In this document: piece by piece, positions 10,501 to 61,923 of the stretch
How the letters are laid out: each line of letters opens with the position of its first letter
Numbering within the stretch: position 1 is the first letter of the stretch
NCBI GenBank assembly: GCA_035498835.1
Contig: DATJZU010000158.1
Location: 5,778 to 69,777 of the forward strand
DNA: 64,000 nucleotides
Direction of reading: 5' to 3'
From: Thermoanaerobaculia bacterium
GTDB lineage: Bacteria > Acidobacteriota > Thermoanaerobaculia > UBA5066 > Gp7-AA6
The notes under the pieces: generated by a model
Seen by the model: only the letters and a program-made list of their open reading frames with translations
Told to the model about the DNA's origin: nothing
Databases searched by the model: none
Translations under genes and position numbers: made by a program

Positions 10501-10564
10501 CCCTTCGCGGCTCCGCCTCTCGCCCGGTCCGCCGCCGCCGGCGGGCCGGGCTCCTCTCACCGCC

Positions 10565-11572
10565 TCAGCGGCCGAAGAAGATCAGGATCGCCGCGCGCAT
10601 CGCGAGATAAGCGAGAACGAGGGCGATCGGCGTCCGGTAGCGCCGGATGAATCGACCGACCCTCTCGAACGGCGTCTCACGGTGGGCCGATGGGACCTCG
10701 CCCTCCAGAAACCTCCCGACGTCGGCCGAGAGATCCGGCACGCTCGGGTAGCGATCCTCCGGACGCGGCGCCATCGCGCGGCGGGCCACGGCGCCGAGCG
10801 CCCGGGCGGCCGCGGCGTCGGGGGCGGGCGCCGCGGCAAGCAGATCGCGCAGGATGACCCCGAGCGCGTGGATGTCCGTCCGCGCGTCCACGAGGTCCGT
10901 TCGGCCGTCGGCCTGCTCCGGCGCCATGTATGCACGCGTCCCCACGACCGTGCCGCCCGGCTCGACGGGATCCTCGGTGCTCCGCGCCACTCCCCAGTCG
11001 AGGACGAGCACCTCGCCGAAGCCGCCGAGCATCACGTTCTCCGGCTTGAGATCCCGATGGACCACGCCGGCCGCGTGCGCGAACGCGACCGCGTCGCAGA
11101 TCTTCCGGAAGACGGCGAGGCGGTCGACGAGCGACGGGCCGGATCGCGCGTACTCGTCGAGCCGGCGGCCGCGCACGTGCTTCATCGCGTAGAAGACGCG
11201 GCCGTCGGGAAGCGTTCCTGCGTCGTGCACGGGCACGAGGCCGGGGTGCTCGAGGCGCGCCATGACCCGCGCCTCGCGGAGGAGACGCGCGGCCTCTGCG
11301 CCGGCGTTGCCGGAGCTCTCGAGCGTCAGGACCTTCAGCGCCACCGGCCGCTCGAGGGCCGCGTCTTCGGCGAGATACACGGTCCCCATTCCGCCGCGCC
11401 CGATCTCCTCGCGGATCGTGTAGCGCGTGCCCGAGAGGTCCGGCCGGTCCGCCGCGGCCCGCAGCCGCTCGAGCGCCTCGTCCGAGAGCCGTCGCACGAT
11501 GAGAAAATATGCCACCGGGGCGCCGGACGCGCGAACCCGGCCGCGGACGCCCCGTAGATACAGGAGCCCCAT
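10565..11572 (-). CDS. serine/threonine protein kinase (Hanks-type)
   Basis: G-loop GRGGMGTVYLA, VAIK-like ALKVL, catalytic loop HRDLKPENVML, DFG-equivalent DWG, and APE. Start taken at MGLLYLRG; an internal GTG start is also possible. Confidence 0.8.
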   Translation of the reverse strand: MGLLYLRGVRGRVRASGAPVAYFLIVRRLSDEALERLRAAADRPDLSGTRYTIREEIGRGGMGTVYLAEDAALERPVALKVLTLESSGNAGAEAARLLREARVMARLEHPGLVPVHDAGTLPDGRVFYAMKHVRGRRLDEYARSGPSLVDRLAVFRKICDAVAFAHAAGVVHRDLKPENVMLGGFGEVLVLDWGVARSTEDPVEPGGTVVGTRAYMAPEQADGRTDLVDARTDIHALGVILRDLLAAAPAPDAAAARALGAVARRAMAPRPEDRYPSVPDLSADVGRFLEGEVPSAHRETPFERVGRFIRRYRTPIALVLAYLAMRAAILIFFGR

Positions 11573-13730
11573 GAGCGTCGAGCCCCGCGAGCGATTCGCC
11601 GCCTTCCCGCCGCCGGACCGCGGGGCGCCTGCGTCGGACTTCCGTCTCGCCGGCCGGCTCGTGCGCCCGGCGTTGAACCGCGTCGAGACGTCCGAGGCAG
11701 CGGTGTCGCTCGAGCCGAAGGTCATGCGCGTGCTCCTCGCGCTCGCGCGTCGGCCCGGCGAGGTGGTGACGAAAGAAGAGCTCTTCCGCGACGTCTGGGA
11801 CGGCGCCTTCGTCTCGGAGGACGTCCTGACGCGCGCGATCGGCGAGCTCCGCCGGCTCTTCGGCGACGACGCGGCGAGTCCCCGCGTCATCGAGACGATC
11901 CGCAAGTCCGGCTATCGGCTGATCGCGCCGATGGCCCCGCCCGCCGCCGCGGAGCCGGCCGACGTCCCGGTGGTGGCGGCGCCGACCGATCGCCGAGGCG
12001 TCGTCGCCGCTGCAGCGATTGCGGTCGCGGCAGCCATCGGCGTCGCATTCCTCCTCCGAACTTCGCCCCGGCGCGACGCCGCGCCGCTCCGCGTCCGGCC
12101 GCTCACGACTTATCCGGGAAACGAGCGCGACCCCGCGCTCTCGCCCGACGGCACGCGTGTCGCCTTCGCGTGGAACGGCGGTTCGGGCGAGGCCATGAGC
12201 CTCTACGTCCAGATGGTCGGCGGCGAGAATCCGCTGCGCTTGACGCGCGACCCGTCCGTCGAGGACCGAACGCCGGCGTGGTCTCCCGACGGCAAGCGCC
12301 TCGCCTTCACGCGCGCGACGCGAAGCGATTGCCGGATCTTCCTCGTTTCCGCGCTCGGAGGCGAGGAGCGGCCGCTCGCGCCGTGCGGCGACGCCGAGTA
12401 CCGCCGCGTGGCCTGGTCTCCCGACGGCCGGTGGCTTGCCCTCTCGCGGCGCGACACGCGCGGCGTGCTCGCTCTCGAGCTCCTCTCTCCCGAGACGCTC
12501 GAGCGCCGCCCGGTCACGCGCGCGCCCGACGGCTTCCTCGGCGACACGTCGCCGGCCTTCTCCCCCGACGGCCAAACGCTCGCCTTCACGCGCAACCGGA
12601 CCGACGGCGTCAACGACATCTATCGCGTGGCGATCTCGGGCGGAGATCCCGTGCGCCTGACCTTCGACGACCGCGACACGATGGGCAGCGACTGGTCGGC
12701 CGACGGCCGGAGCATCCTGTTCTCCTCGAGCCGCGCCGGGATCTATAGCCTGTGGCGCGTTCCTTCGAAGGGCGGCGGCGAGCCGTCCTGGGTTGCCGGC
12801 GGCGGCATCAAGATGAAGCACCCCTCGGCCTCACGGCAGGGGAATCTCGTGGCGTTCGAGAACTGGCTCTACGAGATCAACCTCTGGCGCGTTCCGGCGC
12901 GGTCCGACTCCGGCGCGGGGCCGCCGCGCCGGCTGACCGAAGCGACGGACGAGTGGAACTTCGGCCCGAGCCTCTCGGCCGACGGCGCGCGCGTCGTCTT
13001 CGTCTCGACCCGTTCGGGAAGCGAGGAGATCTGGATCGCCGGCTCCGACGGCGCCGGCGCGAGACGGCTGACGTCCTTCGGAGGAGCGCGGCTCGAGTCG
13101 CCGCGCCTCTCTCCCGACGGGCGGCGCATCGTCTTCTCGGCGCGGGCGCCGGCCCGGTCGAGCCTGTACCTCGTCTCCGCCGACGGCGGGGTGCCGGAGC
13201 GCCTGACCGACGACACCTCCGACGCTCTCGCGCCGCGCTGGTCGCGCGACGGGCGCGCGATCTACTTCGCATCGCGGCGCAGCGGCGCGTGGCAGGTCTG
13301 GCGGCTCGCGCTCGACGGGCGCGGCGTCTCGCCGATGACCACGGCGGGCGGCTACGCCGCGCAGGAGTCGCCGGACGGGCGGTCCCTCTACTTCACGCGC
13401 GCGGACGCCGCCGGCATCTGGCGAATGAGCCTGCCCGCGGGCGAACACGAGGGCGAGGCTCTCGAGCGCGTGACCGATCGGCTCGCCCCCGAGGACTGGG
13501 CCAACTGGGAGATCGGCGCGGCCGGCATCTACTTCCGCGAGCTGTGCCCCCGGCACGAAGGACCCGCGGTCGCGCTGCTTCCCTGGGGCGCTCCCGCGCC
13601 GCGCGACCTCGCCCCGCTCGTGGACCAGGGCTGGTCCGGTTTCGCGGTGTCGGCGGACGGCGAATGGATCGTCTATCCGCGCGTCGACCGCCACACCTGC
13701 GACATTCGCGCGATCGAGAACCCGGCCTGA
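11571..13730 (+). CDS. winged-helix (OmpR/CadC-type trans_reg_C) transcriptional regulator fused to a TolB-like beta-propeller (PD40 repeats)
   Basis: N-terminal region KVMRVLLALARRPGEVVTKEELFRDVWDGAFVSEDVLTRAIGELRR, one TM segment, then repeated WSPDG/ SPDG beta-propeller blades. Confidence 0.85.
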   Translation: MSVEPRERFAAFPPPDRGAPASDFRLAGRLVRPALNRVETSEAAVSLEPKVMRVLLALARRPGEVVTKEELFRDVWDGAFVSEDVLTRAIGELRRLFGDDAASPRVIETIRKSGYRLIAPMAPPAAAEPADVPVVAAPTDRRGVVAAAAIAVAAAIGVAFLLRTSPRRDAAPLRVRPLTTYPGNERDPALSPDGTRVAFAWNGGSGEAMSLYVQMVGGENPLRLTRDPSVEDRTPAWSPDGKRLAFTRATRSDCRIFLVSALGGEERPLAPCGDAEYRRVAWSPDGRWLALSRRDTRGVLALELLSPETLERRPVTRAPDGFLGDTSPAFSPDGQTLAFTRNRTDGVNDIYRVAISGGDPVRLTFDDRDTMGSDWSADGRSILFSSSRAGIYSLWRVPSKGGGEPSWVAGGGIKMKHPSASRQGNLVAFENWLYEINLWRVPARSDSGAGPPRRLTEATDEWNFGPSLSADGARVVFVSTRSGSEEIWIAGSDGAGARRLTSFGGARLESPRLSPDGRRIVFSARAPARSSLYLVSADGGVPERLTDDTSDALAPRWSRDGRAIYFASRRSGAWQVWRLALDGRGVSPMTTAGGYAAQESPDGRSLYFTRADAAGIWRMSLPAGEHEGEALERVTDRLAPEDWANWEIGAAGIYFRELCPRHEGPAVALLPWGAPAPRDLAPLVDQGWSGFAVSADGEWIVYPRVDRHTCDIRAIENPA

Positions 13731-13745
13731 GGCCGGAGGCGGCCG

Positions 13746-15908
13746 TCAGGCGCGCAAATCTTCGGGCCGGATCGGAAGCTTCCGCACCCGCTTCCCGGTC
13801 GCCGCGAAGATCGCGTTGGCGACGGCGGGCGCGACCGCCGGGACCGGCATCTCGCCGAACCCCGACGGCCGGTTGAGCCTGTCCGAGGCGACGGCGTAGA
13901 CCTCGACCTCCGGCATCTCGGCGAGCGCCAGTACGGGAAACTCGCGGTAGCTCGTCTCGGCCACGCGGCCCCTGGCGATCGTGATCTCGCCCTTCAGTGC
14001 GTAGGAAAGCGCCCAGGCGACGCCGCTTTCGACCTGCCCCTCGAGCCCGAGCGGATTGACGACCTGGCCGCAGTCGGTCGCGGTCACGACCCGGTGCACG
14101 CGCACGTCGCCCGCGTCTCCGACCGATACCTCGGCCACCTGCGCGATGAGCGTCCGCCCGTGGTACACGTTGCAGGCGATTCCCCGGCCCGACCGCCGGC
14201 CCGGGACTTTCGCCAGAGGCGACGACCAGCCGGACTTCTCCGCGGCAAGATCGAGCACGGCGCGCAGCTCCGCGCGATCCACCTCGCGCGTCGCGAACGG
14301 GAACTTGCCTTCGAGGTGCCGGCGACGCAGCGCCAGAGGATCCTCGCCGAGATGGTGCGCGATCTCGTCGATCAGGCTCTCGCGCGCGAAGACATTCGGC
14401 GGGTAGAACACCGAGCGCCACGCGCCGGTCGCGACGGGAGACTCCACGTCCGTCCACTCGACGCGCAAGTTGTCGATGGCGTACGGGTTGTCGTAGCCGC
14501 CCCAGGGATTCACGTCCGGATCGTCCACGGCGTTCGGGTCGAACGCGCCGAACATCGTGAGGTGGAACGTCGTGAAGCGGTGGGTCCAGGCGACAATTCG
14601 TCCCGACGCGTCGACTCCCGCCGCGATGTCCGCGCGGCCGGCCGGGTGCAGGAAGTCGTGCCGGAACTCGTCCGGGCGCGACCAGACGACCTGCACCGCC
14701 CGTCCCGCAGCGCGCGCGACCTCGACGGCCTCGACGGCGTAGTCCGCTCCGAGGCGCCGGCCGAAGCCGCCGCCGATGAGCGTGACGTGCACGCGGACGT
14801 TCTCCGGGGCGATGCCCAGGAGCTTTGCCGCCTCCCGGCGGACGCGCTCCGGGTTCTGCGTGGGCGTCCAGATCTCGCAGCGGCCGGACGACACCCGCGC
14901 GATCGTGCTCCCGGGCTCGACCGAGGCGTGCGCCTGGAACGTGTCGCGGTACGTCGCCGAGAATCGCGCCGTCGCTCCCGCGAGCGCCGCTTCGACGTCG
15001 CCGGACTTGCGCGACACGCGACCGGGACGGGCGGCCGCCTCGTCGAGGCGGCGCCAGAGATCCTCGGTCGAGAGCGCCGCGTTGCGCCCCTCGTCCCAGA
15101 CGACGTCGAGCGCGTCGCGGCCTTCGAGCGCCGCCCAGGTGTCGTCGGCGAGGACCGCGATGCCGTTCGAGATCGCCACGACGCCGCGCACGCCGGGCAC
15201 TTTCTTCGCCTTCGCGGCGTCGAAGCGCACGAGTTTTCCGCCGGCCACCGGGCACCGCGCGATCGCGGCGAACAGCATATCCGGAACACGCGTGTCGAGG
15301 CCGTACTTCGCGCGCCCCGACACGATCGCCGGCCCGTCGATTCGCGGCACGCGCGTCCCGACGATCCGGAAGTCCTTCGGGTCCTTGAGCGGCGGATCCT
15401 TCGGCACCGGGAGCTTCGCGGCATCGGCCGCGAGGGCGCCGAAGCCGAGCCGCCGGCCCGTCGGCGCGTGCACGACGAAACCTCTCTCCGCGCGGCACTC
15501 GCCGGCCGGAGACCCCCACCGTCGCTCGGCCGCCGCGACCAGCATCTCCCGCGCCGACGCCGCGGCCTTGCGGAGCACGGGCCACGAGGAGATCACGCTG
15601 TCGCTCCCGCCCGTGTTCATGTCCGGGTAGTCCGGCGACGGCGACGCCTGCTCGATCGAAATGGAGGACCAGTCGGCCTCGAGCTCCTCGGCGAGGATCA
15701 TCGCGAGGCTCGTACGGACGCCCTGCCCCATCTCGGAGCGCGCGACCACGAGCGTGACGCGCCCGTCGGCTCCGATGCGCAGCCACTGGTTCGGCGCGAA
15801 CGGGGAAACGCCGGCCGCCGTCTCCGCCAGCAGCGGGAGACGCAGCGCGGCGCCCGCCGCGCCGGCGAGCGCCCCGTACCGCAGGAAATCCCGCCGGGTG
15901 GCGCTCAT
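13746..15908 (-). CDS. xanthine dehydrogenase-family molybdopterin-binding subunit (IorB/aldehyde oxidoreductase large subunit), Tat-exported
   Basis: Twin-arginine signal [20 protein letters not shown]. Aldehyde oxidase/xanthine dehydrogenase Mo-binding domains follow. The start overlaps the stop of the 2Fe-2S subunit (ATGA). Confidence 0.85.
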
Positions 15909-16375
15909 CGCGCGCCTCCGAGCGCGCCGGCGCGCCGCACGGCCCGGCGAACCCGCGCATACGTGCCGCATCGGCAGACGTGGCCGTCGAAGGCGCGGTC
16001 GATGTCCGCGTCGGTCGGACGGGCCGTCCGGGCGAGCAGCGCCGCGGCCTCCAGAATCATTCCCGGCTGGCAGTAGCCGCACTGCGCGACGTCCTCCGCG
16101 AGCCAGGCCTTCTGGCAGGGATGGCCGCCGTCGGGCGAGAGGCCTTCGATCGTCGTGAACCGCCGCCCCGCCGCCGCCGAGACCGGCGTCTGGCAGGACC
16201 GGACGGCCTCGCCCGCCATGAGCACCGTGCAGGCGCCGCAGGCGCCCATGCCGCAGCCGAATTTCGTTCCCGTCAAGCCGAGCCGGTCCCGCAGGACCCA
16301 GAGGAGCGGCATGTCCGGGTCCGCCGCCTCGACCTCGCGAGGCTGCCCGTTGACCGTGAATCGGTAGCGCGCCAT
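15905..16375 (-). CDS. (2Fe-2S)-binding subunit of molybdenum hydroxylase (IorA-like)
   Basis: Cysteine motifs [11 protein letters not shown] and CGYCQPG...CRCGTY. Confidence 0.9.
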
Positions 16376-16464
16376 GGAGTCCCTCCTCGACGTTTCTTAC
16401 GGCGGAATCCGGCCGGAGGTCCCGAGGTCCTGCCGAGGTTCTCCCGAGGATCGATGCCCGTAGC

Positions 16465-17211
16465 CTACGGAGCGCCGCGGCCGAGAATCGTCCGAACCTC
16501 CTCGCGGTATTCCCGTTCGCTCCCCGTCACGCGGCGGAGCCGTTCGAGCACGATCCGCCGGAAGGTCCGCCGCGCGAAGGCGAGCTGGTTGGTGACCTCG
16601 GTGACGGACAGCGACAGCTCCCGGCCGAGCTCCGCGTAGGTCGGCGCGCCTTCGGGAGGGTCCAGGTCATAGGCCTCGAAGAGCCGGAAGGCCGGGGACT
16701 TCCCGCGGCGGCGGCACTCGGCCTCGAGCTCGGTGAGCGCGGCCGAGAAGAGCCCGCGCACGAACTCCTCGTGGAAGACGTCTTCGGGCGCCTTCCCGGC
16801 GGGCAGCGGGCGCTCGGAGATCTCCCCTTCGGCGCTCGCGAAGTCGAGCGAGAGGAGCGGCGCGCCGGGATCCCGCTTCAGACGTCGGGAGGCCTTGCGC
16901 TCGTTGGCGACGTACCCGTCGAGGCAGGTCCGCAGGAACGTCCGGAAGCTGCCCTTGCGCGCGTCATACGCCGAAAGCCACGACTTCTCGAAGGCGCGCG
17001 CGAAGAAACCCTGCGTGAGATCCCGCGCGCCCTCGCCGTCCTCGCGCCAGCGCAGACGCAGGTACTTGTAGGCCGGCTTCCAGTACGCCTCGACCACGGC
17101 GGAGAAGCCCCGTTCGCGGGTGTCGGGATCGGAGCTTCCCGCCTCGCGCACCGCAGACAGGCGCGTCGTCGGGAACCGACCCCGGCCGCCGGTGACGGCG
17201 TCCTCGCGCAT
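16465..17211 (-). CDS. RNA polymerase sigma-70 family (ECF-like) sigma factor
   Basis: Region 2-like segment (AYWKPAYKYLRLRW ... LTQGFFARAFE) and region 4-like segment (TYAELGRELSLSVTEVTNQLAFARRTFRRIV). Confidence 0.7.
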   Translation of the reverse strand: MREDAVTGGRGRFPTTRLSAVREAGSSDPDTRERGFSAVVEAYWKPAYKYLRLRWREDGEGARDLTQGFFARAFEKSWLSAYDARKGSFRTFLRTCLDGYVANERKASRRLKRDPGAPLLSLDFASAEGEISERPLPAGKAPEDVFHEEFVRGLFSAALTELEAECRRRGKSPAFRLFEAYDLDPPEGAPTYAELGRELSLSVTEVTNQLAFARRTFRRIVLERLRRVTGSEREYREEVRTILGRGAP

Positions 17212-17247
17212 CCGGCGAAGGATATGCGACCGGCGGGCCGGACGATC

Positions 17248-17697
17248 TCAGCCCCGCCGGACGGGCGGGAGCCCCAGGCGCTCGAAGGTGTCCCGCGTCT
17301 CCGAGTTCAGGTCGTAGTCCGCGAGGCGGTCGGCGGGAACCCACGCCGCGGCTTCGAACTCCTCGTTCAGAACGATCTCTCCCGGCCGCGCCCGGCATTC
17401 CGAGACGAGGAAGATCATGTGGAGCCTTCGGCGCGATCCGTCGGGAAAGAGCTTCTCGCCCACGCGCTCCTTGAAGAAGAGCGGCCGGGTCTCCGAGATC
17501 TCGAGGCCCGTCTCCTCCCGAATCTCGCGTGCGAGAGCCTGCTCCAGACTCTCCCCCGGCTCGACGCCTCCCCCCGGCAGACCCCATTGCCCAGGGAAGA
17601 CGCCACGATGCTTCGGCATCCGGCAGATCAGGTACGACCCGGCGGCGTCGCGCAGGACCCCCGCGACGACGAGCCGCTGCGGCGCGGGTTCGCTCAA
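17248..17697 (-). CDS. NUDIX hydrolase
   Basis: Nudix box GGGVEPGESLEQALAREIREETGL. Probable TTG start. Confidence 0.85.
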   Translation of the reverse strand: MSEPAPQRLVVAGVLRDAAGSYLICRMPKHRGVFPGQWGLPGGGVEPGESLEQALAREIREETGLEISETRPLFFKERVGEKLFPDGSRRRLHMIFLVSECRARPGEIVLNEEFEAAAWVPADRLADYDLNSETRDTFERLGLPPVRRG

Positions 17698-17725
17698 GGA
17701 CCGCGGACTCCGAGCCGGCCCGAGC

Positions 17726-18559
17726 CTAGGACCCTTCGAGCCGGAAGGGCAACCCGAGCAGCCGGGAACGCAGCGCCGACGGCGTGACGCCGAAAGCCCG
17801 GCGGAAGAAATGCGTGAAGTGGCTGTGGCTCGCGTAGCCGAGCTCCAGCGCGAGGTCGATCAGTCGCTCGCCGGGATCCGTCACGCGCTCGAGCGACCGG
17901 CGCAGCCGGATCTGGTGCTGGTACTCGGACAGCGTGAGGCCCGTCTGCCGGCGGAAGACGTGGCAGAGATGAAACGCGGAGCAGCCGAGCTCACCCGCGA
18001 GCTGCGCGAGATCGAGCGGGTCTCGCGCGCGCAGAGCGAGGATCGTCTTCGCGTCTTCCGTGAGCTGGGCGTGGCGGGCCTCCGCGCGCTGCCCCGGACG
18101 CTCCCGGCCCGAATGCGCCGCCACGGCGCCCGATACGACGCGGTCGAGGATCCAGACCATGGTCTCCTCGAGATAGAGCCGGTCGGGCTTCTCGGACGTG
18201 GCGGCGTGCAGGAACGCGCGCCTTTGCTCGAGATAGGTGCGCGGATCGCTCGGGCCCCACGCGAACCGGAAGGGCCGCTCGGTCTCGGCCGCGGCAGGGT
18301 CGTACCGCGCGAGCACGTGACGAAGCGTCTCCGGCTCGATCCAGTACCAATCGCTGTCGTCGCCTTCCGGCCAGACGCGCTGGCGCCGGAAGACCTGCCC
18401 CGCGTTGTAGAACGTGACGAGGTTCGGCCCCGAGACAAACGGCGTCGAGCCCTCGTGCTGGATCTTCACGACGGTTCGCGGGAAGACGAAGATCGCGTTG
18501 CGCGTCGGCCCCGAATCGACGAAGAGCGGGTCGTCGGCCGGGCAGCGGAAGGTCGCCAT
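17726..18559 (-). CDS. AraC family transcriptional regulator
   Basis: C-terminal HTH_18 (LAGELGCSAFHLCHVFRRQTGLTLSEYQHQIRLRRSLE ... LGYASHSHFTHFFRRAFGVTPSALR). Start at MATFRCPADD. Confidence 0.8.
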   Translation of the reverse strand: MATFRCPADDPLFVDSGPTRNAIFVFPRTVVKIQHEGSTPFVSGPNLVTFYNAGQVFRRQRVWPEGDDSDWYWIEPETLRHVLARYDPAAAETERPFRFAWGPSDPRTYLEQRRAFLHAATSEKPDRLYLEETMVWILDRVVSGAVAAHSGRERPGQRAEARHAQLTEDAKTILALRARDPLDLAQLAGELGCSAFHLCHVFRRQTGLTLSEYQHQIRLRRSLERVTDPGERLIDLALELGYASHSHFTHFFRRAFGVTPSALRSRLLGLPFRLEGS

Positions 18560-18789
18560 CGCGAGCAGCGGGCTCCGGAACACCAGGTGGTCGACGCGCG
18601 TGATCGCGCGGTCGATCGGGTCGCCGGCCCGCTCTCCCTCCGCGAGGGCCGAAACCGACAGCGACGCCGGCGGAAAAGACCGGATCACTTCCACGGAGGA
18701 AACAGTACTCCTTCGGGGGCGAGTTCGACTATCAAGACGTTGCGCAGCGCCGGCGGGACGGGTTCGGCGGACGGCTTCCCCGGGCATTC

Positions 18790-19497
18790 TCAGACCTCGA
18801 TCGCGCCGCCGACGGCCTTCAAATGCTCCCGGAAGGTGAGGCCCGGACGCGCCGCCCGGCCTTCCAAGAAATCGGCGAAACGAAACTGTTCGGACAGGGT
18901 CCGGCCCTCCCGGACCCGCCGGGCCTGCTCCCTTTCGGTCCGGGCGATCCGCGAGGCCGTCTCGAGGACCTCCGCCGCGCGCAGGCCGTCGAGAAACACG
19001 GCGCCGTCTTCGTCGGCGAACACGAGGTCGCCCGCGCCGACGCTCTCGTCTCCGAAGCGCGCGCGCGTCAACGCGTTCGCCGGCCGCGGGTCGACGCGGC
19101 GGGGACCGACGGGCGTCGCGCCGTAGCTCCACACCGGAGGGCCCAGGGCGGCGAGCTCCGACGTGTCGCGGTGAAGGCCCCAGACGAGGATGCCGGAGAG
19201 TCCCGCGGCCTTCGCCTCGAGCGCGACGAGATCTCCGATGCACGCCTCGTCCGACCGCGCCGCGTTGTCGATGACGAGGACGTCGCCGGGCCGCGCGTCG
19301 ACGAGGGCCTCGAGAAAGACGTCCACGCTGCCGGCGTGCCGCGCGGGCAGCGCGCGTCCCGCGGCGCGAGTCCCGGGCAAGACGGGACGCAGGCCCGGCG
19401 GCGCGAGGCGCGGCGGCATGCCGATCCGCAAGCACGCGTCCGCGAGCGCCGGCGTCGAAAGGGTCGCGAAGGCCTCGGCCGTTTCTCGGGAATCCAC
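18790..19497 (-). CDS. RraA family protein (RNase E regulator / 4-hydroxy-4-methyl-2-oxoglutarate aldolase-like)
   Basis: RraA-like fold motifs (GDVLVIDNAARSDEACIGDLVALEAKAAGLSGILVWGLHRDTSEL). Confidence 0.75.
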   Translation of the reverse strand: MDSRETAEAFATLSTPALADACLRIGMPPRLAPPGLRPVLPGTRAAGRALPARHAGSVDVFLEALVDARPGDVLVIDNAARSDEACIGDLVALEAKAAGLSGILVWGLHRDTSELAALGPPVWSYGATPVGPRRVDPRPANALTRARFGDESVGAGDLVFADEDGAVFLDGLRAAEVLETASRIARTEREQARRVREGRTLSEQFRFADFLEGRAARPGLTFREHLKAVGGAIEV

Positions 19498-48189: not shown

Positions 48190-48969
48190 CTAGTCCACCC
48201 GGACCTGCACCCGTTCGATCCCAGTGGCCTTGCCCGTCGCCTCGTCCACGGCGACGATCGCGCCCGAGAGCCGGATGTCGCGCTTCGCCGTCTCGAACGA
48301 CCGCGGCGTCTGGGACAGGAACTTCTCGATGATCCGGTCCTTCGAGAAGCCGATGATGCCTTCGTACGCGCCCGTCATTCCGACGTCGCTCTGATAAGCC
48401 GTGCCGCCCGGCAGGACCGTTTCGTCGGCCGTCGGCACGTGCGTGTGCGTGCCGAGAACGGCCGAGACGCGCCCGTCGAGATACCAGCCCATGGCCATCT
48501 TCTCGGAGGTGGCCTCGGCGTGCATGTCCACGACGATGACCTTCGCCTTCAGGCGCGCGAGCTCCTCGTCCGCGACGCGAAACGGCGAGTCGGCGTTGGC
48601 CGGCATGAAGACCTGGCCCTGCAGGTTCACGACCCCGACGGGAATGCCGGCGGCCGTCTGCTGGACCGTCACACCGCGCCCGGGGTTGCCGGGCGGGTAG
48701 TTGGCGGGCCGCAGCAGCCGGTCCGAGGAGTTCAGCGAGTCGTAGATCTCCTTCTTGTCCCAGATGTGGTTGCCGGAGGAGAAGACGTCGATCGGCATCT
48801 TCGAGAGCTCGGCGAAGAGCTCGACGGTCAGGCCGAAGCCGCCGGCCGCGTTCTCGACGTTGACGATCGTGAAGTCGATCTTCTTGCGGTCGATGACGGA
48901 AGTTAGTGCGTCCTGAAGCGCCCGGCGTCCAGGAGAACCGACGACGTCGCCGACGAAGAGGATGTTCAA
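48190..48969 (-). CDS. ymdB: TIGR00282/YmdB family metallophosphoesterase
   Basis: MNILFVGDVVGSPGRRAL ... GNHIWDKKE ... GTHTHVPTAD. Conserved position downstream of rny. Confidence 0.85.
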   Translation of the reverse strand: MNILFVGDVVGSPGRRALQDALTSVIDRKKIDFTIVNVENAAGGFGLTVELFAELSKMPIDVFSSGNHIWDKKEIYDSLNSSDRLLRPANYPPGNPGRGVTVQQTAAGIPVGVVNLQGQVFMPANADSPFRVADEELARLKAKVIVVDMHAEATSEKMAMGWYLDGRVSAVLGTHTHVPTADETVLPGGTAYQSDVGMTGAYEGIIGFSKDRIIEKFLSQTPRSFETAKRDIRLSGAIVAVDEATGKATGIERVQVRVD

Positions 48970-49004: not shown

Positions 49005-49095
49005 ACCGAGGACTGTGGACTTGGGACTGAGGACTTTACTGGCTTGAGCCACTTGAGTCATCGGTCCTCTGTCCTCTGTCCTCTGTCCTCAGTCG
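49005..49095. repeat. structured intergenic element: (NNGGACT)x4 - 27 nt spacer - (GTCCTCT)x4 inverted heptamer arrays
   Basis: GAGGACT GTGGACT TGGGACT GAGGACT ... GTCCTCT GTCCTCT GTCCTCT GTCCTCA, ending 2 nt before the rny stop codon. Confidence 0.7.
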
Positions 49096-50664
49096 TTACC
49101 TCGCGTACTCGACCGCCCGCGTCTCGCGGATGACCGTCACCTTGATCTGTCCCGGATACTGCAGCTCAGCCTCGATCTTCTTGGCCACGTCGCGCGAGAG
49201 CCAGAGCGCCTCGTCGTCCGTGACACGGTTGGCCTCGACCACGATGCGCAGCTCGCGGCCGGCCTGGACGGCGAACGCCTTCTGGACCCCCTTGAAGCTG
49301 TCCGCGATGTGCTCGAGCTTCTCGAGGCGCTTGACGTAGGTCTCGAGGATCTCGCGCCGCGCGCCCGGCCGCGCCGCCGACAGTGCGTCCGCACCGTTGA
49401 CGAGGACCGCCTCGAGCGACCGCGGCTCGTAGTCGCCGTGATGGCACTCCATCGCGTGGATGACCTCGTTCGACTCGCCGAACTTCTTCAGGACCTCGCG
49501 CCCGAGCTCGAGGTGCGTGCCTTCCATCTCCCGGTCGATGGCCTTGCCGATGTCGTGGAGGAGTCCCGCGCGCTTGGCCACCTCGACCTTGCCGCCGAGC
49601 TCCGAGGCCATGTTCGTCGCGAGCCAGGAAACTTCCTTCGAGTGCTGAAGCACGTTCTGTCCGTAAGACGTCCGGAACTTCAGGCGTCCGAGGAGCTTGA
49701 TGAGCTCCGGGTGGAGGTCGGCGATGCCGAACTCGAGCGCGCACGCCTCGCCCTCCTGCCGGATCCGCTCCCAGAGCTCCGAGCGCACCTTCTCGACGAT
49801 CTCCTCGATGCGCGCCGGGTGAATGCGGCCGTCCACGATCAACTTCTCGAGCGCCAGGCGAGCCACCTCGCGGCGCAGCGGCTCGAAGGCCGAGATGACG
49901 ATCGCCTCCGGAGTGTCGTCGATGATGAGGTCCACACCGGTCGCGGCCTCGAGCGCGCGGATGTTTCGGCCCTCGCGCCCGATGATCCGACCCTTCAGGT
50001 CGTCCGACGGCAACTCGACGACCGAGACCGTCGCTTCGACGACCACGTCGGAAGCCAGTCGCTGGATCGCCATCCCGATGATGTGCCGCGCCTTCTGCGT
50101 GGACTGCTCGAGCGCCTCTTCCTCGATGCGCCGCATGAGCCCCGCGCCCTCGACGCGCGCCTCGTTCTCGATCGAACGGACGAGATCCCGCTTCGCGTCC
50201 ACGGCGGTCATTCCGGAGATCTGCTCGAGGCGCTTCTTCTGCTCCTCTACCAGCCGCGAAGCCTCGGTCTGCGTCTCCTCCACCTTGCGCTGCTGGTCGG
50301 AGAGCGCGCGCTCCTTGCGCGTGAACTCTTCCTCGCGCCGCTCCTGGGTGGCGAGCTTCCGGTCGAGGTTCTCTTCCTTCGCGACGACGCGGCTCTCGAG
50401 CGCCGCGACCTCCTGGCGCCGGGCGGCGATCGACTTCTCGAACTCGGCCCGTGCCGCCAGCACCTTTTCCTTGGCCTCGACGGACGCCTCGCGGAGTTTC
50501 CCCTCGGCGGACTTCGCGGCCTCGGCGCGGATCCGCTCGGCCTCGGTGCGCAGCGCCGAGCGCTCGCCCGAGAGACTCCTCCGGGCCATGACGAACGCAA
50601 TCGCCCCAAAGACGGCGGCCACGGCCAGGCCCGCCGCGATGGCGATCGCCAGAGATGTACTCAT
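49096..50664 (-). CDS. rny: ribonuclease Y
   Basis: N-terminal TM, coiled coil, KH domain ([17 protein letters not shown]), and HD domain ([12 protein letters not shown]...HH). Confidence 0.9.
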
Positions 50665-55231: not shown

Positions 55232-55281
55232 GGCCGATTCCTTTCGTGGTCCGACGGCACTGCGCCTTGACCGATCAACGC

Positions 55282-55848
55282 TCAACGTTCCGCGGCGCGC
55301 GCGGTCGCGGGAGCGGGCTTGCCGCCCTTCTCGTGCACGCGCACCGGCGCGAGGATCTGGTAGAGGCGGTTGCCGAGCATCTCCGAGCGCGACTCGGCCA
55401 CGGCCTTTCCGGCGAGGTCCTGCAGCAGACGGTCGAGGACCTTCTGCCCGTTCTCCCGGCGCGCCATCTCGCGGCCACGGAACTGGACCGTCGCTTTCAC
55501 TTTGTCGCCGTGCGAGAGGAACTTCACGATGTTCTTCACCTTGAAGTCGTAGTCGTGATCGTCGATGTTCGGACGGAACTTCACTTCTTTGACCTGGGTC
55601 GTCTTCTGTTTCTTCTTCGAGTCCTGCTGCTTCTTCTTCTGCTGATAGATGAACTTCCCGAAGTTCATGATCCGGCAGACCGGCGGGTTGGCCGTCGGCG
55701 CGATCTCGACGAGGTCCAGCCCCGCCTCCCGCGCCTTCTGGAGTGCGTCGGCCATCGCGACCACGCCAAGCGCATCTCCCGATTCGCCGATCAGGCGAAC
55801 CTCCTTCCACCGAATCTGTTCGTTGACGCGAATGCTCTTCTTATCGAT
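55282..55848 (-). CDS. infC: translation initiation factor IF-3, non-AUG (AUC) start
   Basis: The conserved IF-3 N-terminal region ([30 protein letters not shown]) is encoded upstream of the first AUG/GUG. An in-frame UGA lies 2 codons upstream of the AUC. GGAGGUGA Shine-Dalgarno 5 nt before the AUC. Confidence 0.85.
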
Positions 55849-57865: not shown

Positions 57866-57941
57866 TGGTAGGCGCTAACGGGTTCGAACCGTTGACCTCT
57901 ACCGTGTGAAGGTAGCGCTCTACCAGCTGAGCTAAGCGCCT
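57866..57941 (-). tRNA. tRNA-Val (anticodon CAC)
   Basis: 76-nt cloverleaf folded by hand. 7-bp acceptor stem, anticodon loop UUCACAC, T-loop TTCGAAC, and an encoded CCA. Confidence 0.9.
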
Positions 57942-58295: not shown

Positions 58296-59282
58296 ATGAA
58301 GCTCGTCATCCAACTGCCGGCCTGGAACGAGGAGGAGTCGCTCCCCCGGACGCTCGCTGCCCTGCCGCGCCGACTGGCTCCCTTCCGCGAAATCGAGATC
58401 CTCGTCGTGGACGACGGATCGAGCGACGCGACGGCGGAGGCGGCCCTCGCCGGCGCCGACCGGGTCGTGCGGCTCCCCGCCCACGCGGGCCTCGCCGCGG
58501 CGTTCCGCGCCGGGCTCGAGGCGGCACTCGCCGCGGGCGCCGACGTCATCGTCAACCTCGACGCCGACGGCCAGTACGACCCGGGCGACATTCCGGCGCT
58601 CGTCGCGCCGATCCTCGCGGGGCGCGCCGACCTCGTCATCGGCGACCGCGGGCCGGGGACGCTCGCACACTTCTCCGCCTCCAAGCGCCTCCTGCAGCGG
58701 CTCGGCAGCTGGGTCGTCGAGCAGGCGGCCGGCATCGAGGTGCCCGACGCGACGTCGGGCTTCCGCGCTTTCTCGCGCGAGGCGGCGCGGAAGGTCAACG
58801 TCTTCTCGCGGATGACGTACACGCTCGAGACGATCATCCAGGCGGGATCGAAGGGCCTGCGCGTCGCCTCGGTCCCGGTGCGAGCCCACGAGACGCACCG
58901 CCGGTCGCGCCTCCTCTCGTCGGTCCCGCACTACGTGGCGGTTCAGGCGGCGAACATCCTGAGGATCACGGCGCTCTACAAGCCGCTGAAGCTCTTCTCG
59001 GCGGCCGCGGCCGTCTTCCTGCTCGGAGGCGTCGCGCTCGGCGCGCGCTTTCTCTACTACTTCTTCTTCACGCCACGCGCCGCCGGGCACGTCCAGTCGC
59101 TCATCCTCGCGGCCGTCCTGATCCTGGTGGGCGCCCTGACGTTTCTCATCGCGCTGCTCGCGGACCTCGTCTCGATCAACCGGACCCTGTTGGAAGAGTT
59201 GCGCTTGAGTGGTGGGCCGTCAGCCGTCGGCTCTCAGCTCTCAGCCAGAAAGACCGAAACCACGCCTCCGGCTGACAGCTGA
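58296..59282 (+). CDS. glycosyltransferase family 2 (polyprenol-phosphate sugar synthase DPM1/GtrB-like) with C-terminal TM
   Basis: LVIQLPAWNEEESL, DDGSSD, and DADGQYDP. The C-terminal 25 aa are encoded by the palindromic repeat element. Confidence 0.8.
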   Translation: MKLVIQLPAWNEEESLPRTLAALPRRLAPFREIEILVVDDGSSDATAEAALAGADRVVRLPAHAGLAAAFRAGLEAALAAGADVIVNLDADGQYDPGDIPALVAPILAGRADLVIGDRGPGTLAHFSASKRLLQRLGSWVVEQAAGIEVPDATSGFRAFSREAARKVNVFSRMTYTLETIIQAGSKGLRVASVPVRAHETHRRSRLLSSVPHYVAVQAANILRITALYKPLKLFSAAAAVFLLGGVALGARFLYYFFFTPRAAGHVQSLILAAVLILVGALTFLIALLADLVSINRTLLEELRLSGGPSAVGSQLSARKTETTPPADS

Positions 59283-59313
59283 AAGCTGACAGCCGATAGC
59301 TCCTCTCAGGCCC
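59211..59313. repeat. REP-like imperfect palindromic element, copy A
   Basis: Left arm GGCCGTCAGCCGTCGGCTCTCAGCTCTCAGCC and right arm GGCTGACAGCTGAAAGCTGACAGCCGATAGC are near-reverse-complements. The element is built from CAGC/GCTG-containing 7-mers. Confidence 0.6.
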
Positions 59314-59884
59314 AATCCCCCGCCTTCCGCGACAGAACCGGCGCCCCCTCGAGGAGCGTCAGAATCGCCTTTGTGCTGTCCGCGACCGCGAAAATGATCC
59401 GGTCTTCTCCGCGCACGTAGTTGTTCCGGATCGCCGCCTCGAACTGCGCGAGCAGCGGATCGAAATAGCCGCCGATGTTCGCGATGACGATCGGTTTGCC
59501 GTGGATCCCCATCTGCTTCCACGTCAGCATCTCGATGATCTCTTCCATCGTCCCGAAGCCGCCCGGAAAGGCGACGAACGCGTCGGAGAGCTCGAACATC
59601 CGCTGTTCCCGCTCGTGCATCGTCGAGACCAACTGAAGCTCCGTCAGCCCTCGATGCGCCGACTCCCGGCCTTCGAGCGCCTTCGGGATCACGCCCGTGA
59701 CTTGCCCGCCGGACGCGAGCACCTCGTCGGCAATCGCGCCCATGAGGCCCCTGCTCGAGCCGCCGTAGACGAGACCGACGCCGCGTTTCGCGAGCTCGCG
59801 CCCGAAAGCGCGGATTTCCTGTTCGACGGCGGCGTTCCTGGAGTCGCTGCTGCTGCAGTAGACGCAGACGCGTTTCAAATCCAT
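59306..59884 (-). CDS. LOG family protein (TIGR00730; nucleotide 5'-monophosphate phosphoribohydrolase)
   Basis: PGGFGTMEE motif and the GGxxGxMG Rossmann signature. Confidence 0.85.
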   Translation of the reverse strand: MDLKRVCVYCSSSDSRNAAVEQEIRAFGRELAKRGVGLVYGGSSRGLMGAIADEVLASGGQVTGVIPKALEGRESAHRGLTELQLVSTMHEREQRMFELSDAFVAFPGGFGTMEEIIEMLTWKQMGIHGKPIVIANIGGYFDPLLAQFEAAIRNNYVRGEDRIIFAVADSTKAILTLLEGAPVLSRKAGDWA

Positions 59885-59893
59885 GCGCGGATC

Positions 59894-60469
59894 TTACCCG
59901 GCCCGACGCACGAAGCGGCTGCCCGGAGTGTCGAGCGGCACTCCTTTCCGGCACAGCGGACACTCCGCCTCCGGCCACGCCGGAACCGAGAGCGGGAGAA
60001 GCGACCGTGCCGGAACCGCGAAGGCGCCCGCCGGGAGACCCCGATCCACGACCGAGCCGACGGCGACGACGGCTCCTCCCGCGTTCTCGACGGCGGCCGC
60101 CGCCTCGCGCGTCGACTTGCCCGTCGTGAAAACGTCCTCGACGACGACGGCGCGCTCGCCCGAATCGAGCGCGAAGCCGCGGCGGAGCACGAAGGCGTCT
60201 TCCGGACGCTCGACGAAAACGAACCGCGTCCCGAGCGCGCGCGCCGTCTCGTGCCCGATGATCAATCCGCCCAGAGCCGGCGAGACGACGACCTGCGGCG
60301 CGAACTCGCGCAGCTTGTCCGCGAGCTCGCGCCCCGCGGCCTCGGCGCGCGCCGGCCACTGGAGAAGGCGCGCACACTGCAGGTACGTGTCCGAGTGAAG
60401 GCCGCTCGAGAGGCGGAAGTGGCCGCGCAGCAGCGCGCCCGTGTCGAGAAAGTCCTGGAGGGAGAGCAC
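59894..60469 (-). CDS. pyrE: orotate phosphoribosyltransferase-like (type I PRTase fold) with C-terminal CxxC
   Basis: GHFRLSSGLHSDTYL N-terminal OPRT-like motif and a PRPP-binding loop (VVVEDVFTTGKST). GTG start. A 9-nt gap separates it from the LOG gene. Confidence 0.7.
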   Translation of the reverse strand: MLSLQDFLDTGALLRGHFRLSSGLHSDTYLQCARLLQWPARAEAAGRELADKLREFAPQVVVSPALGGLIIGHETARALGTRFVFVERPEDAFVLRRGFALDSGERAVVVEDVFTTGKSTREAAAAVENAGGAVVAVGSVVDRGLPAGAFAVPARSLLPLSVPAWPEAECPLCRKGVPLDTPGSRFVRRAG

Positions 60470-60475
60470 GAAAAG

Positions 60476-60558
60476 AAGTTATCAGCTATCGGCTATCAGC
60501 TATCAGCTATCAGCCAGACTCCGAGCTGATGGCTGAGAGCTGACGGCTGACGGCCCAT
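60476..60558. repeat. REP-like palindromic element, copy B (inverted relative to copy A); contains (ATCAGCT)x5 tandem heptamers
   Basis: The reverse complement of B aligns with A over both arms (ggccgtcagccgtc[a/g]gctctcagc ... ggctga[t/c]agctga[t/a]agctga[t/c]agccgatagct). Confidence 0.6.
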
Positions 60559-61923
60559 TCACCCGTCGCTCTCTTTGGAGATCTTGTGGTGCTCGATCTT
60601 CTTGTAGAGGTTCGACCGCGGCGTCTGGATTACCTCGGCCGTGCGACTGATGTTCCAGCCGTTCTCGCGCAGCTTGGCCACGAGAAACTGCCGCTCGGCG
60701 AACTCCTTGAACTCGGAAAGCGTCGCGAGGCGGGCGCTCTTCTCCGAGATCTCCGCCGGAGAGACCCGCGCCTCCGGCGGCAGGTCGCGCGCCTCGATCG
60801 GTTCCGCGTCGGTCATGATCAGGACGCGCTCGATCAGGTTGCGCAGCTCCCGCACGTTACCGGGCCAGGCACGCGCGGCGAGCATCTCGAGCGCGCTCGA
60901 TCCGAACCGGCGCGGACGGCGATGGTCACGCTCCGAGAACACGCGCGTGAAGTGCTCGATGAGATCCGGGATGTCCTCGGTTCGCTCGCGAAGCGGGGGC
61001 GTGCGCACCGGCACGACGTTCAGCCGGAAATAGAGGTCCTCACGGAATCGGCCTTCGCGGATCCAGACGGTCAGGTCGCGGTTGGTGGCCGCGAGCGTCC
61101 GCACGGCGACCTGGCGGACGCGCGCCGCGCCGACGGGCTCGACCTCGCCGGCCTCGAGGACCCGCAGGACCTTCGCCTGCGCGCGGGCGGACATGTCCCC
61201 GATCTCGTCGAGAAAGATCGTGCCGCCGTCGGCCTCCACGAACTTGCCGACCTGCCGTCGCACGGCGCCGGTGAACGAGCCCTTCTCGTGGCCGAAGAGC
61301 TCCGACTCGATGAGCTCTTCGGGGATGGCGGCGCAGTTGACCTGGATGAACGGGCCGGACGCGACGCGGGAGCCCCGGTGGATTTCGCGGGCGACGAGCT
61401 CCTTGCCGGTGCCGCTCTCGCCCTGGATGAGAACCGTCGCGCCGGTCGGCGCCGCGCGCGCGATCTCCTCGCGGAGGCGCTGCATCGGGGCGCTGCGGCC
61501 CACGAGAACCGAGTCCTCGTCGAGGCGGCGCCGGAGGCGCAGGTTCTCCGCCGCGAGCGTGTCGCGCGAAAGCGCGTTCGCGAGAGAGACGAGGATGCGC
61601 TCGCGCTGCGGCGGCTTCTCGAGGAAGTCCACGGCGCCGCGCCGCGTGGATTCGACCGCCGTCGCGATGTCGCCGTGGCCCGAGATCATCAGCACGGGCG
61701 GCGCCCCGTCGCGCGCGACGATGCGGTCGAGCACCTGGAGACCGTCCATTCCGGGCATCTTGATGTCGAGGAGCACGGCCCCCGGCGGATTCGACTCGAT
61801 CTCCTGGAGCGCCGACGGCCCGTCGCCCGCCGTCGTGACGGTATACCCCTCGTACTCGAGGATCATCCGAAGCGCGTCCCGAATGTCGGGTTCGTCGTCG
61901 ACGACGAGGATCGGTCGGCCCAT
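60559..61923 (-). CDS. sigma-54-dependent Fis family response regulator
   Basis: Receiver domain (ILVVDDEPDIRDALRMILE), AAA+ core (GESGTGKELVAREIH, ESELFGHEKGSFTGA), and a C-terminal HTH. Confidence 0.9.
   Translation of the reverse strand: MGRPILVVDDEPDIRDALRMILEYEGYTVTTAGDGPSALQEIESNPPGAVLLDIKMPGMDGLQVLDRIVARDGAPPVLMISGHGDIATAVESTRRGAVDFLEKPPQRERILVSLANALSRDTLAAENLRLRRRLDEDSVLVGRSAPMQRLREEIARAAPTGATVLIQGESGTGKELVAREIHRGSRVASGPFIQVNCAAIPEELIESELFGHEKGSFTGAVRRQVGKFVEADGGTIFLDEIGDMSARAQAKVLRVLEAGEVEPVGAARVRQVAVRTLAATNRDLTVWIREGRFREDLYFRLNVVPVRTPPLRERTEDIPDLIEHFTRVFSERDHRRPRRFGSSALEMLAARAWPGNVRELRNLIERVLIMTDAEPIEARDLPPEARVSPAEISEKSARLATLSEFKEFAERQFLVAKLRENGWNISRTAEVIQTPRSNLYKKIEHHKISKESDG

Follow-up and report, generated by a model that had tools for sequence, protein, structure and literature searches.

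Two long imperfect palindromes in inverted orientation, elements A and B, bracket a LOG-family gene and a phosphoribosyltransferase (PRT) gene in a 64,000-nt stretch of DNA from a Thermoanaerobaculia bacterium (contig DATJZU010000158.1, positions 5,778 to 69,777 of the forward strand; hereafter the window, the whole stretch analysed). Are A and B the ends of a mobile cassette, partners in a regulatory or recombinogenic structure, or two neighbouring members of a wider family? We favour, with moderate confidence, an explanation in which they are neighbouring copies of dispersed, fast-evolving heptamer-repeat hairpins that may serve as intercistronic or 3'-end stem-loops, in the manner of repetitive extragenic palindromic (REP) elements. 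The genes around them are:

58296-59282, plus strand: glycosyltransferase family 2 (GT2) gene (PF00535)
59306-59884, minus strand: LOG-family gene (TIGR00730 / Lysine_decarbox)
59894-60469, minus strand: PRT gene, PyrE-like (PF00156)
60559-61923, minus strand: gene of an NtrC-like sigma-54-dependent response regulator

These gene calls agree with the preliminary description of the locus, which had also placed two inverted palindromic elements here. Repeat search, Tandem Repeats Finder (TRF) and folding confirm that A and B are long hairpins and that B is an inverted copy of A. Their parts are:

59211-59315: element A, a heptamer-repeat hairpin located where the 3' ends of GT2 and LOG converge (sequence, repeat search, TRF, folding)
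59213-59218 and 59309-59314, plus strand: closing stem of A, TGGGCC pairing with GGCCCA
59219-59246, plus strand: 5' arm of A, NNTCAGC-type units GTCAGCC, GTCGGCT, CTCAGCT, CTCAGCC
59247-59270, plus strand: loop of A, ~24 nt, ~77% conserved relative to the orthologue in the related genome L128
59271-59301, plus strand: 3' arm of A, GCTGACA, GCTGAAA, GCTGACA, GCCGATA, GCT
60476-60558: element B, a heptamer-repeat hairpin filling the spacer from the NtrC-like stop codon (60559-61) to the PRT start codon (GTG, 60467-69)
60480-60514, plus strand: 5' arm of B, TATCAGC, TATCGGC, TATCAGC, TATCAGC, TATCAGC (TRF period 7, 5.0 copies, 92% matches)
60525-60557, plus strand: 3' arm of B, GCTGATG, GCTGAGA, GCTGACG, GCTGACG, GCCCA (repeat search)

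Repeat search yields two inverted matches between the elements, one of 35 nt (59267-59301 with 60484-60518, 89% complementary) and one of 33 nt (59213-59245 with 60525-60557, 91% complementary); matches in direct orientation are weaker (65-81%). TRF reports period-7 arrays in all four arms, including 59271-59301, 60480-60514 and 60525-60554. The five ATCAGCT units originally described in B prove to be four perfect units and a fifth that is a TCGGC variant. On either strand, both elements form a long stem in which 6-bp blocks are split by single mismatches. Fold energies range from -43 to -64 kcal/mol, with z scores of -3.8 to -6.2 against dinucleotide-preserving shuffles.

The reverse complement of the plus-strand 3' arm of B matches the 5' arm of A at 25 of 26 positions, TGGGCC included, so that the 5' arms of A and B have in common the tract TGGGCCGTCAGCCGTC[G/A]GCTCTCAGC, which contains one non-repeat hexamer. 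In A, TGGGCC pairs with GGCCCA, the complement of the last two LOG codons, and the base of the hairpin includes the LOG stop codon; in B, TGGGCC is partnerless. On the minus strand, hairpin B starts 1 nt past the NtrC-like stop codon and ends 11 nt ahead of the PRT GTG start, after which only CUUCUUUUC precedes the start codon.

What defines A and B is an architecture, not one sequence: each arm consists of three to five tandem 7-nt units of fixed polarity. In this type, which we call the CAGC type, the 5' arm is built from NNTCAGC and the 3' arm from GCTGANN on either strand, the pentamer core being constant and two positions (NN) free. A generic array scan of 902 kb, comprising the window and 120 loci of other genomes, singles out the 7-nt period; the thresholds were looser for periods 4-6. 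Period 7 gives 475 tandem arrays and 89 inverted array pairs, 33 of which lack the CAGC type, as compared with 125-160 tandem arrays and 0-1 inverted pairs for periods 4-6, 35 and 5 for period 8, and 23 and 3 for period 9. Period 7 is likewise strongly over-represented among viral, metagenome and relatives sequences, which makes four sets in all. At unit positions outside the search pattern, core bases are 64-91% conserved while NN carries only 0.07-0.13 bits; NN is near random across the family, with CG in 27 of 365 left-arm units. The outer N is paired in 59% of units, mostly as T:A, giving a unit RGCTGAN.

We searched one-genome-per-species contigs with the hairpin pattern TCAGCNNTCAGC-N(5-35)-GCTGANNGCTGA. 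It matches at least 120 genome loci, and the matches listed span over 15 phyla. They include Acidobacteriota, Nitrospirota, Planctomycetota, Gemmatimonadota, Chloroflexota, Verrucomicrobiota and several 'Deltaproteobacteria', together with Bacteroidota, Chlamydiota, Elusimicrobia, Rubrobacter, Methylomirabilota, Omnitrophota and Calothrix, among others. A 22-base arm pattern derived from A and B identifies 77 metagenome loci with GC contents of 0.37-0.72 and unrelated loops and flanks. The REP-like family membership proposed in the preliminary description thus holds, and members in genomes, metagenomes and viral contigs are far more numerous than could be seen from the window.

The order of the arms is as constant as their core. 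Among IMG/VR viral contigs the forward pattern occurs in at least 120 stretches versus 5 for a reversed arrangement of equal composition; hairpins with four perfect units per arm are found in 47 stretches in the forward arrangement, versus 2 with three-unit arms in the reversed one. When 61 arrays were collected by the TCAGC arm alone, a GCYGA partner lay downstream in 29 and upstream in none, and 32 were single. Genuine hairpins of the opposite polarity, in which the GCTGA arm precedes the TCAGC arm, are rare but do exist (contigs L331, 4147-4201, and L333, 206-275).

Phage genomes can be densely occupied. A tailed-phage contig (L282, IMGVR_UViG_3300045933_000102) with terminase, portal, protease and major head protein genes carries 12 hairpins in 14.4 kb, with a common GCGTTT loop motif. 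Along with L282, the contigs L224, L235 and L236 (IMGVR_UViG_3300045936_000120) have a CAGC-type hairpin after nearly each gene, ~20 in 34 kb, the genes of the terminase-portal-protease-capsid block included. BLAST retrieved no copies from cultured phages and one match in a Microcystis plasmid; the low-complexity filter may hide some.

The positions of the hairpins relative to genes follow a clear rule. All but one of 132 elements are intergenic; the median gap to the preceding stop codon is 8 nt, and that to the next start 15 nt. By context, 76 are stop/start, 14 convergent and 7 divergent (background: 461, 102 and 86), which amounts to a mild depletion at divergent promoter regions (7 of 97 classified elements versus 13% of the background). 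In an Acidobacteriaceae genome (L118) and a Pyrinomonadaceae genome (L119), heptamer hairpins, each built from a unit of its own, occupy nearly all spacers of the spc/alpha ribosomal-protein operons. The genes concerned are those of L18, S5, L15, SecY, Adk, S13, S11, L14, L5 and L6, and the layout is a stop codon, 0-8 nt, the hairpin, a Shine-Dalgarno sequence and a start codon.

This placement bears on two conventional roles. A scan for terminator and promoter consensus sequences found neither a U-tract terminator nor a promoter match at A or B. The missing U tract, and the presence of like hairpins between genes inside ribosomal-protein and phage head operons, argue against intrinsic (Rho-independent) terminators. 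Sequestration of the ribosome-binding site or translational coupling by the stem was rejected as well, since the stem includes neither the Shine-Dalgarno sequence nor the start codon in L119.

The same two genomes supply several side observations. In a minus-strand operon of L119 (~3940-4290), rpsN (S14) sits between two near-identical CAGC-type hairpins, both ending in GGCTGAAGGCTGATTGCTGAGAGCTGATTGCT; RNAfold predicts that the two pair with each other across the gene, and the twin layout resembles that of A and B, but in direct orientation. By eye only, the hairpins of one genome seem alike in arm polarity (purine and stop-codon content), the stop-containing, purine-rich arm being the 3' arm in L118 and the 5' arm in L119. 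Two candidate generalizations were dropped. A purine/pyrimidine polarity universal to all unit types is not seen when L118 is compared with L119. Stop codons in all frames do not qualify as a selected feature, given a GGAC/GTCC type in the window that lacks them and a stop-containing arm in L119 that is the 5' one.

The names carried by LOG homologues likewise point to Thermoanaerobaculia, phylum Acidobacteriota. We compared four Thermoanaerobaculia relatives, L128, L129, L130 (from the metagenome-assembled genome GCA_973522155.1) and L131, whose LOG proteins are 93, 90, 87 and 84% identical to that of the window. The gene order NtrC-like, PRT, LOG, convergent GT2, thrS, infC, rpmI, rplT, pheST, zapA, rny is kept in 4/4, and order and orientation are alike whether hairpins are present or not. 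The two hairpin sites, B (NtrC-like stop to PRT start) and A (LOG end / GT2 end), are occupied as follows:

Window: CAGC-type hairpin at site B; CAGC-type hairpin at site A
L128: homologous hairpin with different units at site B; homologous hairpin with conserved loop at site A (alignment score 92)
L129: 35-nt spacer with a ACAGCTGATAGCC remnant at site B; none at site A, where the genes overlap by 4 nt
L130: GTCGACA-unit hairpin at site B and at site A
L131: CGGATCC/CGAAATC arrays at site B; none at site A, where the genes overlap by 4 nt

The site-B hairpin of L128 has its 3' end, GATAGCTGATAACTTCTTYTC-GTG, in common with element B. In L130 the hairpins at the two sites are direct copies, not inverted ones, and a third GTCGACA array lies upstream of GT2. 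Because the order NtrC-PRT-LOG-GT2 is kept with or without hairpins, A and B are not cassette ends. The bracketed cassette or MITE-like insertion pair of the preliminary description (MITE, miniature inverted-repeat transposable element) does not survive this comparison, in which two relatives lack A and one of these lacks both hairpins, and a mobile two-gene cassette is ruled out. The apparent bracketing has a simpler explanation: each hairpin stands beside a stop codon, B after that of the NtrC-like gene and A at the LOG and GT2 ends. Seven other contigs with an identical LOG protein are 99.6-100% identical over the locus and thus uninformative about strain variation.

The relatives also differ in how many arrays they hold. 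In L130, heptamer arrays occupy nearly all spacers of the syntenic region (7795-18796), with at least seven unit types: GATTCCG, CCTTGAG (x6), GTCGACA (three sites), TCGATTT, CGTGAAC, GGAATCG and GACTACC (x5). L129 and L131 have almost no heptamer arrays, indicating that their abundance is lineage-specific.

Element A also reaches into a coding sequence. The last ~24 codons of GT2 (SGGPSAVGSQLSARKTETTPPADS) are read from it, and the GT2 stop codon, TGA at 59280-59282, is provided by a GCTGA unit of the 3' arm. Beyond the residues LEELRL, the GT2 tails of the window and its relatives are unrelated to one another. Since the tail differs in every genome, that of the window is element-encoded, as had been proposed. 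A resemblance of the A loop to the sequence coding for the GT2 tail of L129 (ARKTET versus ARTEET) is suggestive, and too short to rely on.

Hairpins at orthologous positions change quickly. In two pairs of related viral contigs, L319/L325 and L284/L298, orthologous hairpins differ in unit number and NN. One clean filled/empty pair was found, in which a 92-nt hairpin of L245, 4 nt past a TAA stop codon, corresponds to a single base in L273; the site shows no clear target duplication. Individual cases illustrate the range of change. The L325 hairpin (5790-5856) is a near-perfect loop-less palindrome centred on TCAGCTGA, with NN fully complementary between the arms, and in its L319 orthologue one arm is expanded to four CG units. 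Between L260 (10877-10964) and the orthologous spacer of L318, the core differs in all units of both arms (TCAGC/GCTGA versus TCAGT/ACTGA), so that either all units changed in concert or another family member took the place of the hairpin.

Within one genome, neighbouring hairpins tend to be homogenized. Hairpins of the same locus are alike in unit type in 15 of 66 pairs, compared with 5% of random pairs, and CAGC pairs of the same locus have a mean alignment score of 64 versus 40 for random ones. The score of A with B, also 64, falls in the top 3.7% of random same-type pairs from other genomes (mean 40.4, sd 10.8). The tract common to their 5' arms is present in neither L128 orthologue, and TGGGCC has a partner in A only; together these point to conversion or copying, with A as the source and B as the recipient, once the lineages of the window and L128 had separated. 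Judged from the sequences, the common arm was thus probably copied from A to B.

How might such hairpins arise and act? In the explanation that we favour, copies within one genome would be kept alike by copying or ectopic gene conversion, which would explain the 25/26 arm common to A and B. Over slightly longer times, a spacer would gain, lose, resize or swap its hairpin. At the converging ends of LOG and GT2, the GT2 frame has run into element A. The hairpin would be transcribed within the operon and form a very stable stem-loop at the junction of cistrons, where it could shield the upstream cistron from 3' exonucleases, provide a processing site or insulate neighbouring cistrons. It would act like REP elements, the bacterial interspersed mosaic elements (BIMEs) that contain them, or phage intercistronic hairpins, and not as a classical terminator. 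By analogy with these systems, a transcribed stem-loop that stabilizes, processes or insulates cistrons is favoured, because the location of the hairpins, in long, highly expressed operons, with the ribosome-binding site free and divergent promoters mildly avoided, matches that of REP/BIME and phage hairpins.

Several observations weigh against this explanation. The inner free position is paired in 44% of cases, versus ~37.5% by chance, so there is no covariation, and selection for periodic mismatches is not supported either, pairing being neither enriched nor depleted. Mismatches of the G·U type on the sense strand equal those of the A·C type (67 versus 66); this lack of an RNA-strand signature led us to reject selection on one RNA strand. 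Adjacent units have the same NN in 12% of cases versus 9% by chance, which does not fit simple slippage or young slippage arrays; since adjacent units rarely share NN, the arrays are not fresh slippage copies and their cores are maintained by something. The strict order of TCAGC before GCTGA is not accounted for by hairpin stability and points to oriented protein recognition or a transposon-like origin. The hairpins are dispensable, as the close relative L129 does without them, so any function is not essential. Finally, the survey of this genome covered 64 kb, with A and B as its two CAGC-type copies, and that of other genomes covered pieces of 8-20 kb.

If the hairpins were non-autonomous mobile foldback elements of a MITE-like kind, or like REPINs, the hairpin-forming pairs of inverted REPs, the arrays would be oriented sites of a transposase (of the HUH/RAYT type, RAYT denoting REP-associated tyrosine transposase, or another), and A and B would represent two insertions whose function, if any, is incidental. 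Fixed arm polarity is expected of transposon ends, and the clean filled and empty sites of related phage contigs, the different unit types in one spacer among relatives, the genome-specific repertoires and the loops common within one phage all fit, with phages offering a route between phyla. Yet the L245/L273 pair lacks a target-site duplication, loops differ between copies in most genomes (A and B included), half of the arrays are single arms, and a 7-bp unit would make a very short binding site for a transposase. None was seen in the window or in the sampled flanks, where the inspection covered only the genes flanking elements, and orthologous hairpins vary by point substitution and unit number, which resembles evolution in place. 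We regard a foldback origin as unlikely. Chances are lower still that the hairpins are functionless by-products of mutation, produced by 7-nt replication slippage and template switching on existing intergenic hairpins and tolerated where changes by a non-multiple of three are harmless. In many bacteria, no long simple repeat is more abundant than the heptamer (Mrazek 2007, as cited in PMC4679880). Changes of unit number between the orthologues L319/L325 and L284/L298, local runs of identical units in B, presence or absence among close relatives and the missing RNA-strand signature would follow naturally from slippage. It does not account for conserved cores next to saturated NN positions with adjacent units rarely identical, a 25- to 50-fold polarity bias, the recurrence of one core across phyla, or a compact phage that devotes ~7% of 14 kb to hairpins.

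Recognition could instead occur on double-stranded DNA, the arrays being dyad tandem sites for a nucleoid-associated or regulatory protein, or cruciform or topological elements. Seven bp correspond to two-thirds of a B-DNA turn, so that three units span two turns. This geometry, the perfect strand symmetry of mismatches, the fixed dyad polarity and a constant core with free spacer bases, which is typical of repeated protein sites, are all compatible with such a role, for which a like layout in Geobacter metallireducens provides a precedent (PMC2700814). We nevertheless consider it very unlikely: many cores coexist in one genome or operon (six or more in L118), requiring many proteins or recognition of structure alone, divergent promoters are mildly depleted of hairpins, and the hairpins hug stop codons within operons, with no obvious regulatory target at the DNA level. 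Hardly credible, in our judgement, is a function of A and B as a pair, be it a recombinogenic or invertible two-gene cassette or pairing between the two ends of the PRT-LOG mRNA, 5' with 3'. In its favour, a distance of 1.16 kb separates the two inverted copies, and rpsN of L119 has similar twin hairpins on either side. The complementarity of A and B within one minus-strand RNA, noted in the preliminary description, is borne out in silico: the B:A duplex is predicted at -142 kcal/mol versus -108 for the two local hairpins, and the minimum free energy structure of the 1361-nt transcript pairs B with A. Against this, gene order and orientation are alike in all relatives with or without hairpins, and the L130 sites carry direct copies. 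Moreover, the pairing needs read-through from the NtrC-like gene, and co-transcriptional folding and translating ribosomes favour local hairpins. Because B folds ~1.2 kb before A is transcribed, end-to-end pairing is kinetically doubtful; the models suggest that it is thermodynamically possible, and it is not needed to explain the A/B pair.

Beyond the stem-loop role that we favour, a bolder idea is conceivable, and we put it forward with considerable reserve: the hairpins may form a distinct cross-phylum, phage-borne class of elements, whose polar 7-nt arrays are written or maintained by a putative dedicated heptamer-reading factor. If true, this factor, a transposase/recombinase or an oligomeric RNA- or DNA-binding protein, would target the space past stop codons, and the hairpins would represent general operon punctuation in Acidobacteriota, Nitrospirota, Planctomycetota, many other uncultured lineages and their phages. 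In practice, the hairpins extend open reading frames, as in the GT2 tail, may fragment short-read assemblies, and can confuse gene-calling programs as well as detectors of repeats or cassettes.

The window contains one further heptamer-repeat hairpin, which brings their number to three, as well as some minor features:

49008-49095: third heptamer-repeat hairpin, unit GGACTNN / GTCCTCT x4, dG -46.5 and -53 kcal/mol, z -4.7 and -7.1
55270-55290: weak 3-unit period-7 array (ACCGATC, AACGCTC, AACGTTC) overlapping the infC stop codon (55282)
57869-57941, minus strand: tRNA gene, Rfam 68.5 bits
57961-58032, minus strand: tRNA gene, Rfam 66.9 bits

The RNase Y gene (49096-50664, minus strand) has the third hairpin directly past its stop codon; the hairpin in turn lies upstream of the next minus-strand gene (48190-48969). 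TRF places the period-7 array of the hairpin at 49064-49094, and on the sense strand the 5' arm shows four GAGG motifs. The infC-end spacer of L130, which corresponds to the site of the weak array, holds a full CGTGAAC/ACGGTTC hairpin (L130, 14739-14817). The two tRNA genes, located between thrS and GT2, are unrelated to the hairpins and are the only gathering-score matches of Rfam 15 in the window. Relaxing the threshold adds only matches of the elements to generic models of miRNA-precursor hairpins, with scores well short of the cut-offs. Literature searches of the searchable library, literal sequence strings included, returned no description of TCAGC/GCTGA hairpins, the one match being PCR primers only, and no account of the TCAGC/GCTGA polarity, the distribution across phyla and phages or the occupation of ribosomal-protein operons.

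Which known systems, then, do the hairpins resemble? REPs near stop codons affect the upstream cistron. Like REP/BIME and REPIN sequences, the hairpins are imperfect palindromes in transcribed intergenic space, located at gene 3' ends, in operons and between convergent genes; they occur in many copies (about one per gene in some genomes and phages), fall into genome-specific sequence classes and form neighbouring inverted copies. Their size is comparable to that of REPIN hairpins (about 70-110 nt). Unlike REP/BIME, they have arms made of tandem 7-nt units with free positions and a core common across phyla and phages. REPs are palindromes of 20-40 nt with a conserved GTAG/CGTC end, whereas these elements measure 60-110 nt and have no conserved GTAG/CGTC head; CGTC appears in A and B only where NN is CG by chance. 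MITEs would be recognized by an internal sequence common to the copies and by a parent insertion sequence. Here the loops differ between A and B and across loci, and no parent element was seen. Terminal inverted arms are present, and L245/L273 is the single filled/empty pair, without clear duplication.

Phage T7 RNase III sites are long imperfect intercistronic hairpins in highly expressed polycistronic operons and are not terminators. The present hairpins are similar to such processing hairpins in being long, imperfect and placed between most genes of operons; the T7 sites differ in having neither a 7-nt periodicity nor a common repeat unit. In arrangement, the nearest counterpart is 'class 3' of Geobacter metallireducens, five tandem MTYCTGA heptamers on opposite strands that form eight pairs in one genome (PMC2700814). 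There too, two outward-reading arrays of CTGA-containing units face each other in intergenic, multicopy locations (e.g. proB-proA), with a core TYCTGA instead of GCTGA, and Aklujkar et al. guessed that these arrays are putative sites for IHF/HU binding (PMC2700814).

Heptanucleotide repeats as such have been an unexplained bacterial oddity since about 1990, described genome by genome and mostly as direct arrays. Slippage alone would hardly produce what we observe: opposed arrays that commonly form 60-110 nt hairpins, strict polarity in over 15 phyla and tailed phages, occupation of the stop-to-start spacers of ribosomal-protein and phage head operons, and a hairpin type that is swapped among close relatives while the copies of one genome are alike. 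This makes an old question testable, namely what reads the 7-nt period and whether the hairpins set the stability or processing of mRNA cistron by cistron in lineages poor in classical terminators and REPs. Published cases include the short tandemly repeated repetitive (STRR) sequences of cyanobacteria, GGGAATC in Xanthomonas, GGGGAYT and TTTTGAA in Nostoc, and TAACTGA in Beggiatoaceae and cyanobacteria; some of the Xanthomonas and Nostoc GGGAATC/GGGGAYT arrays are inverted, and Nostoc arrays lie near recF and recO (PMC4679880; PMC4692102; bioRxiv 10.1101/2022.06.06.494920). The hairpins have in common with these repeats the 7-nt unit, the intergenic location, often by start or stop codons, several types per genome and a sporadic spread, and CTGA-containing units likewise give stop codons in all three frames (PMC4679880; PMC4692102; bioRxiv 10.1101/2022.06.06.494920). 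Head-to-tail non-coding 7-nt units of several families per genome, the mark of heptanucleotide tandem repeats, are present in L118, L119 and L130. Most published arrays are single, direct and composed of near-identical units, whereas A, B and their relatives consist of opposed arrays that form a hairpin of fixed polarity, with units that have a common core and two variable positions and that recur in many phyla and their phages.

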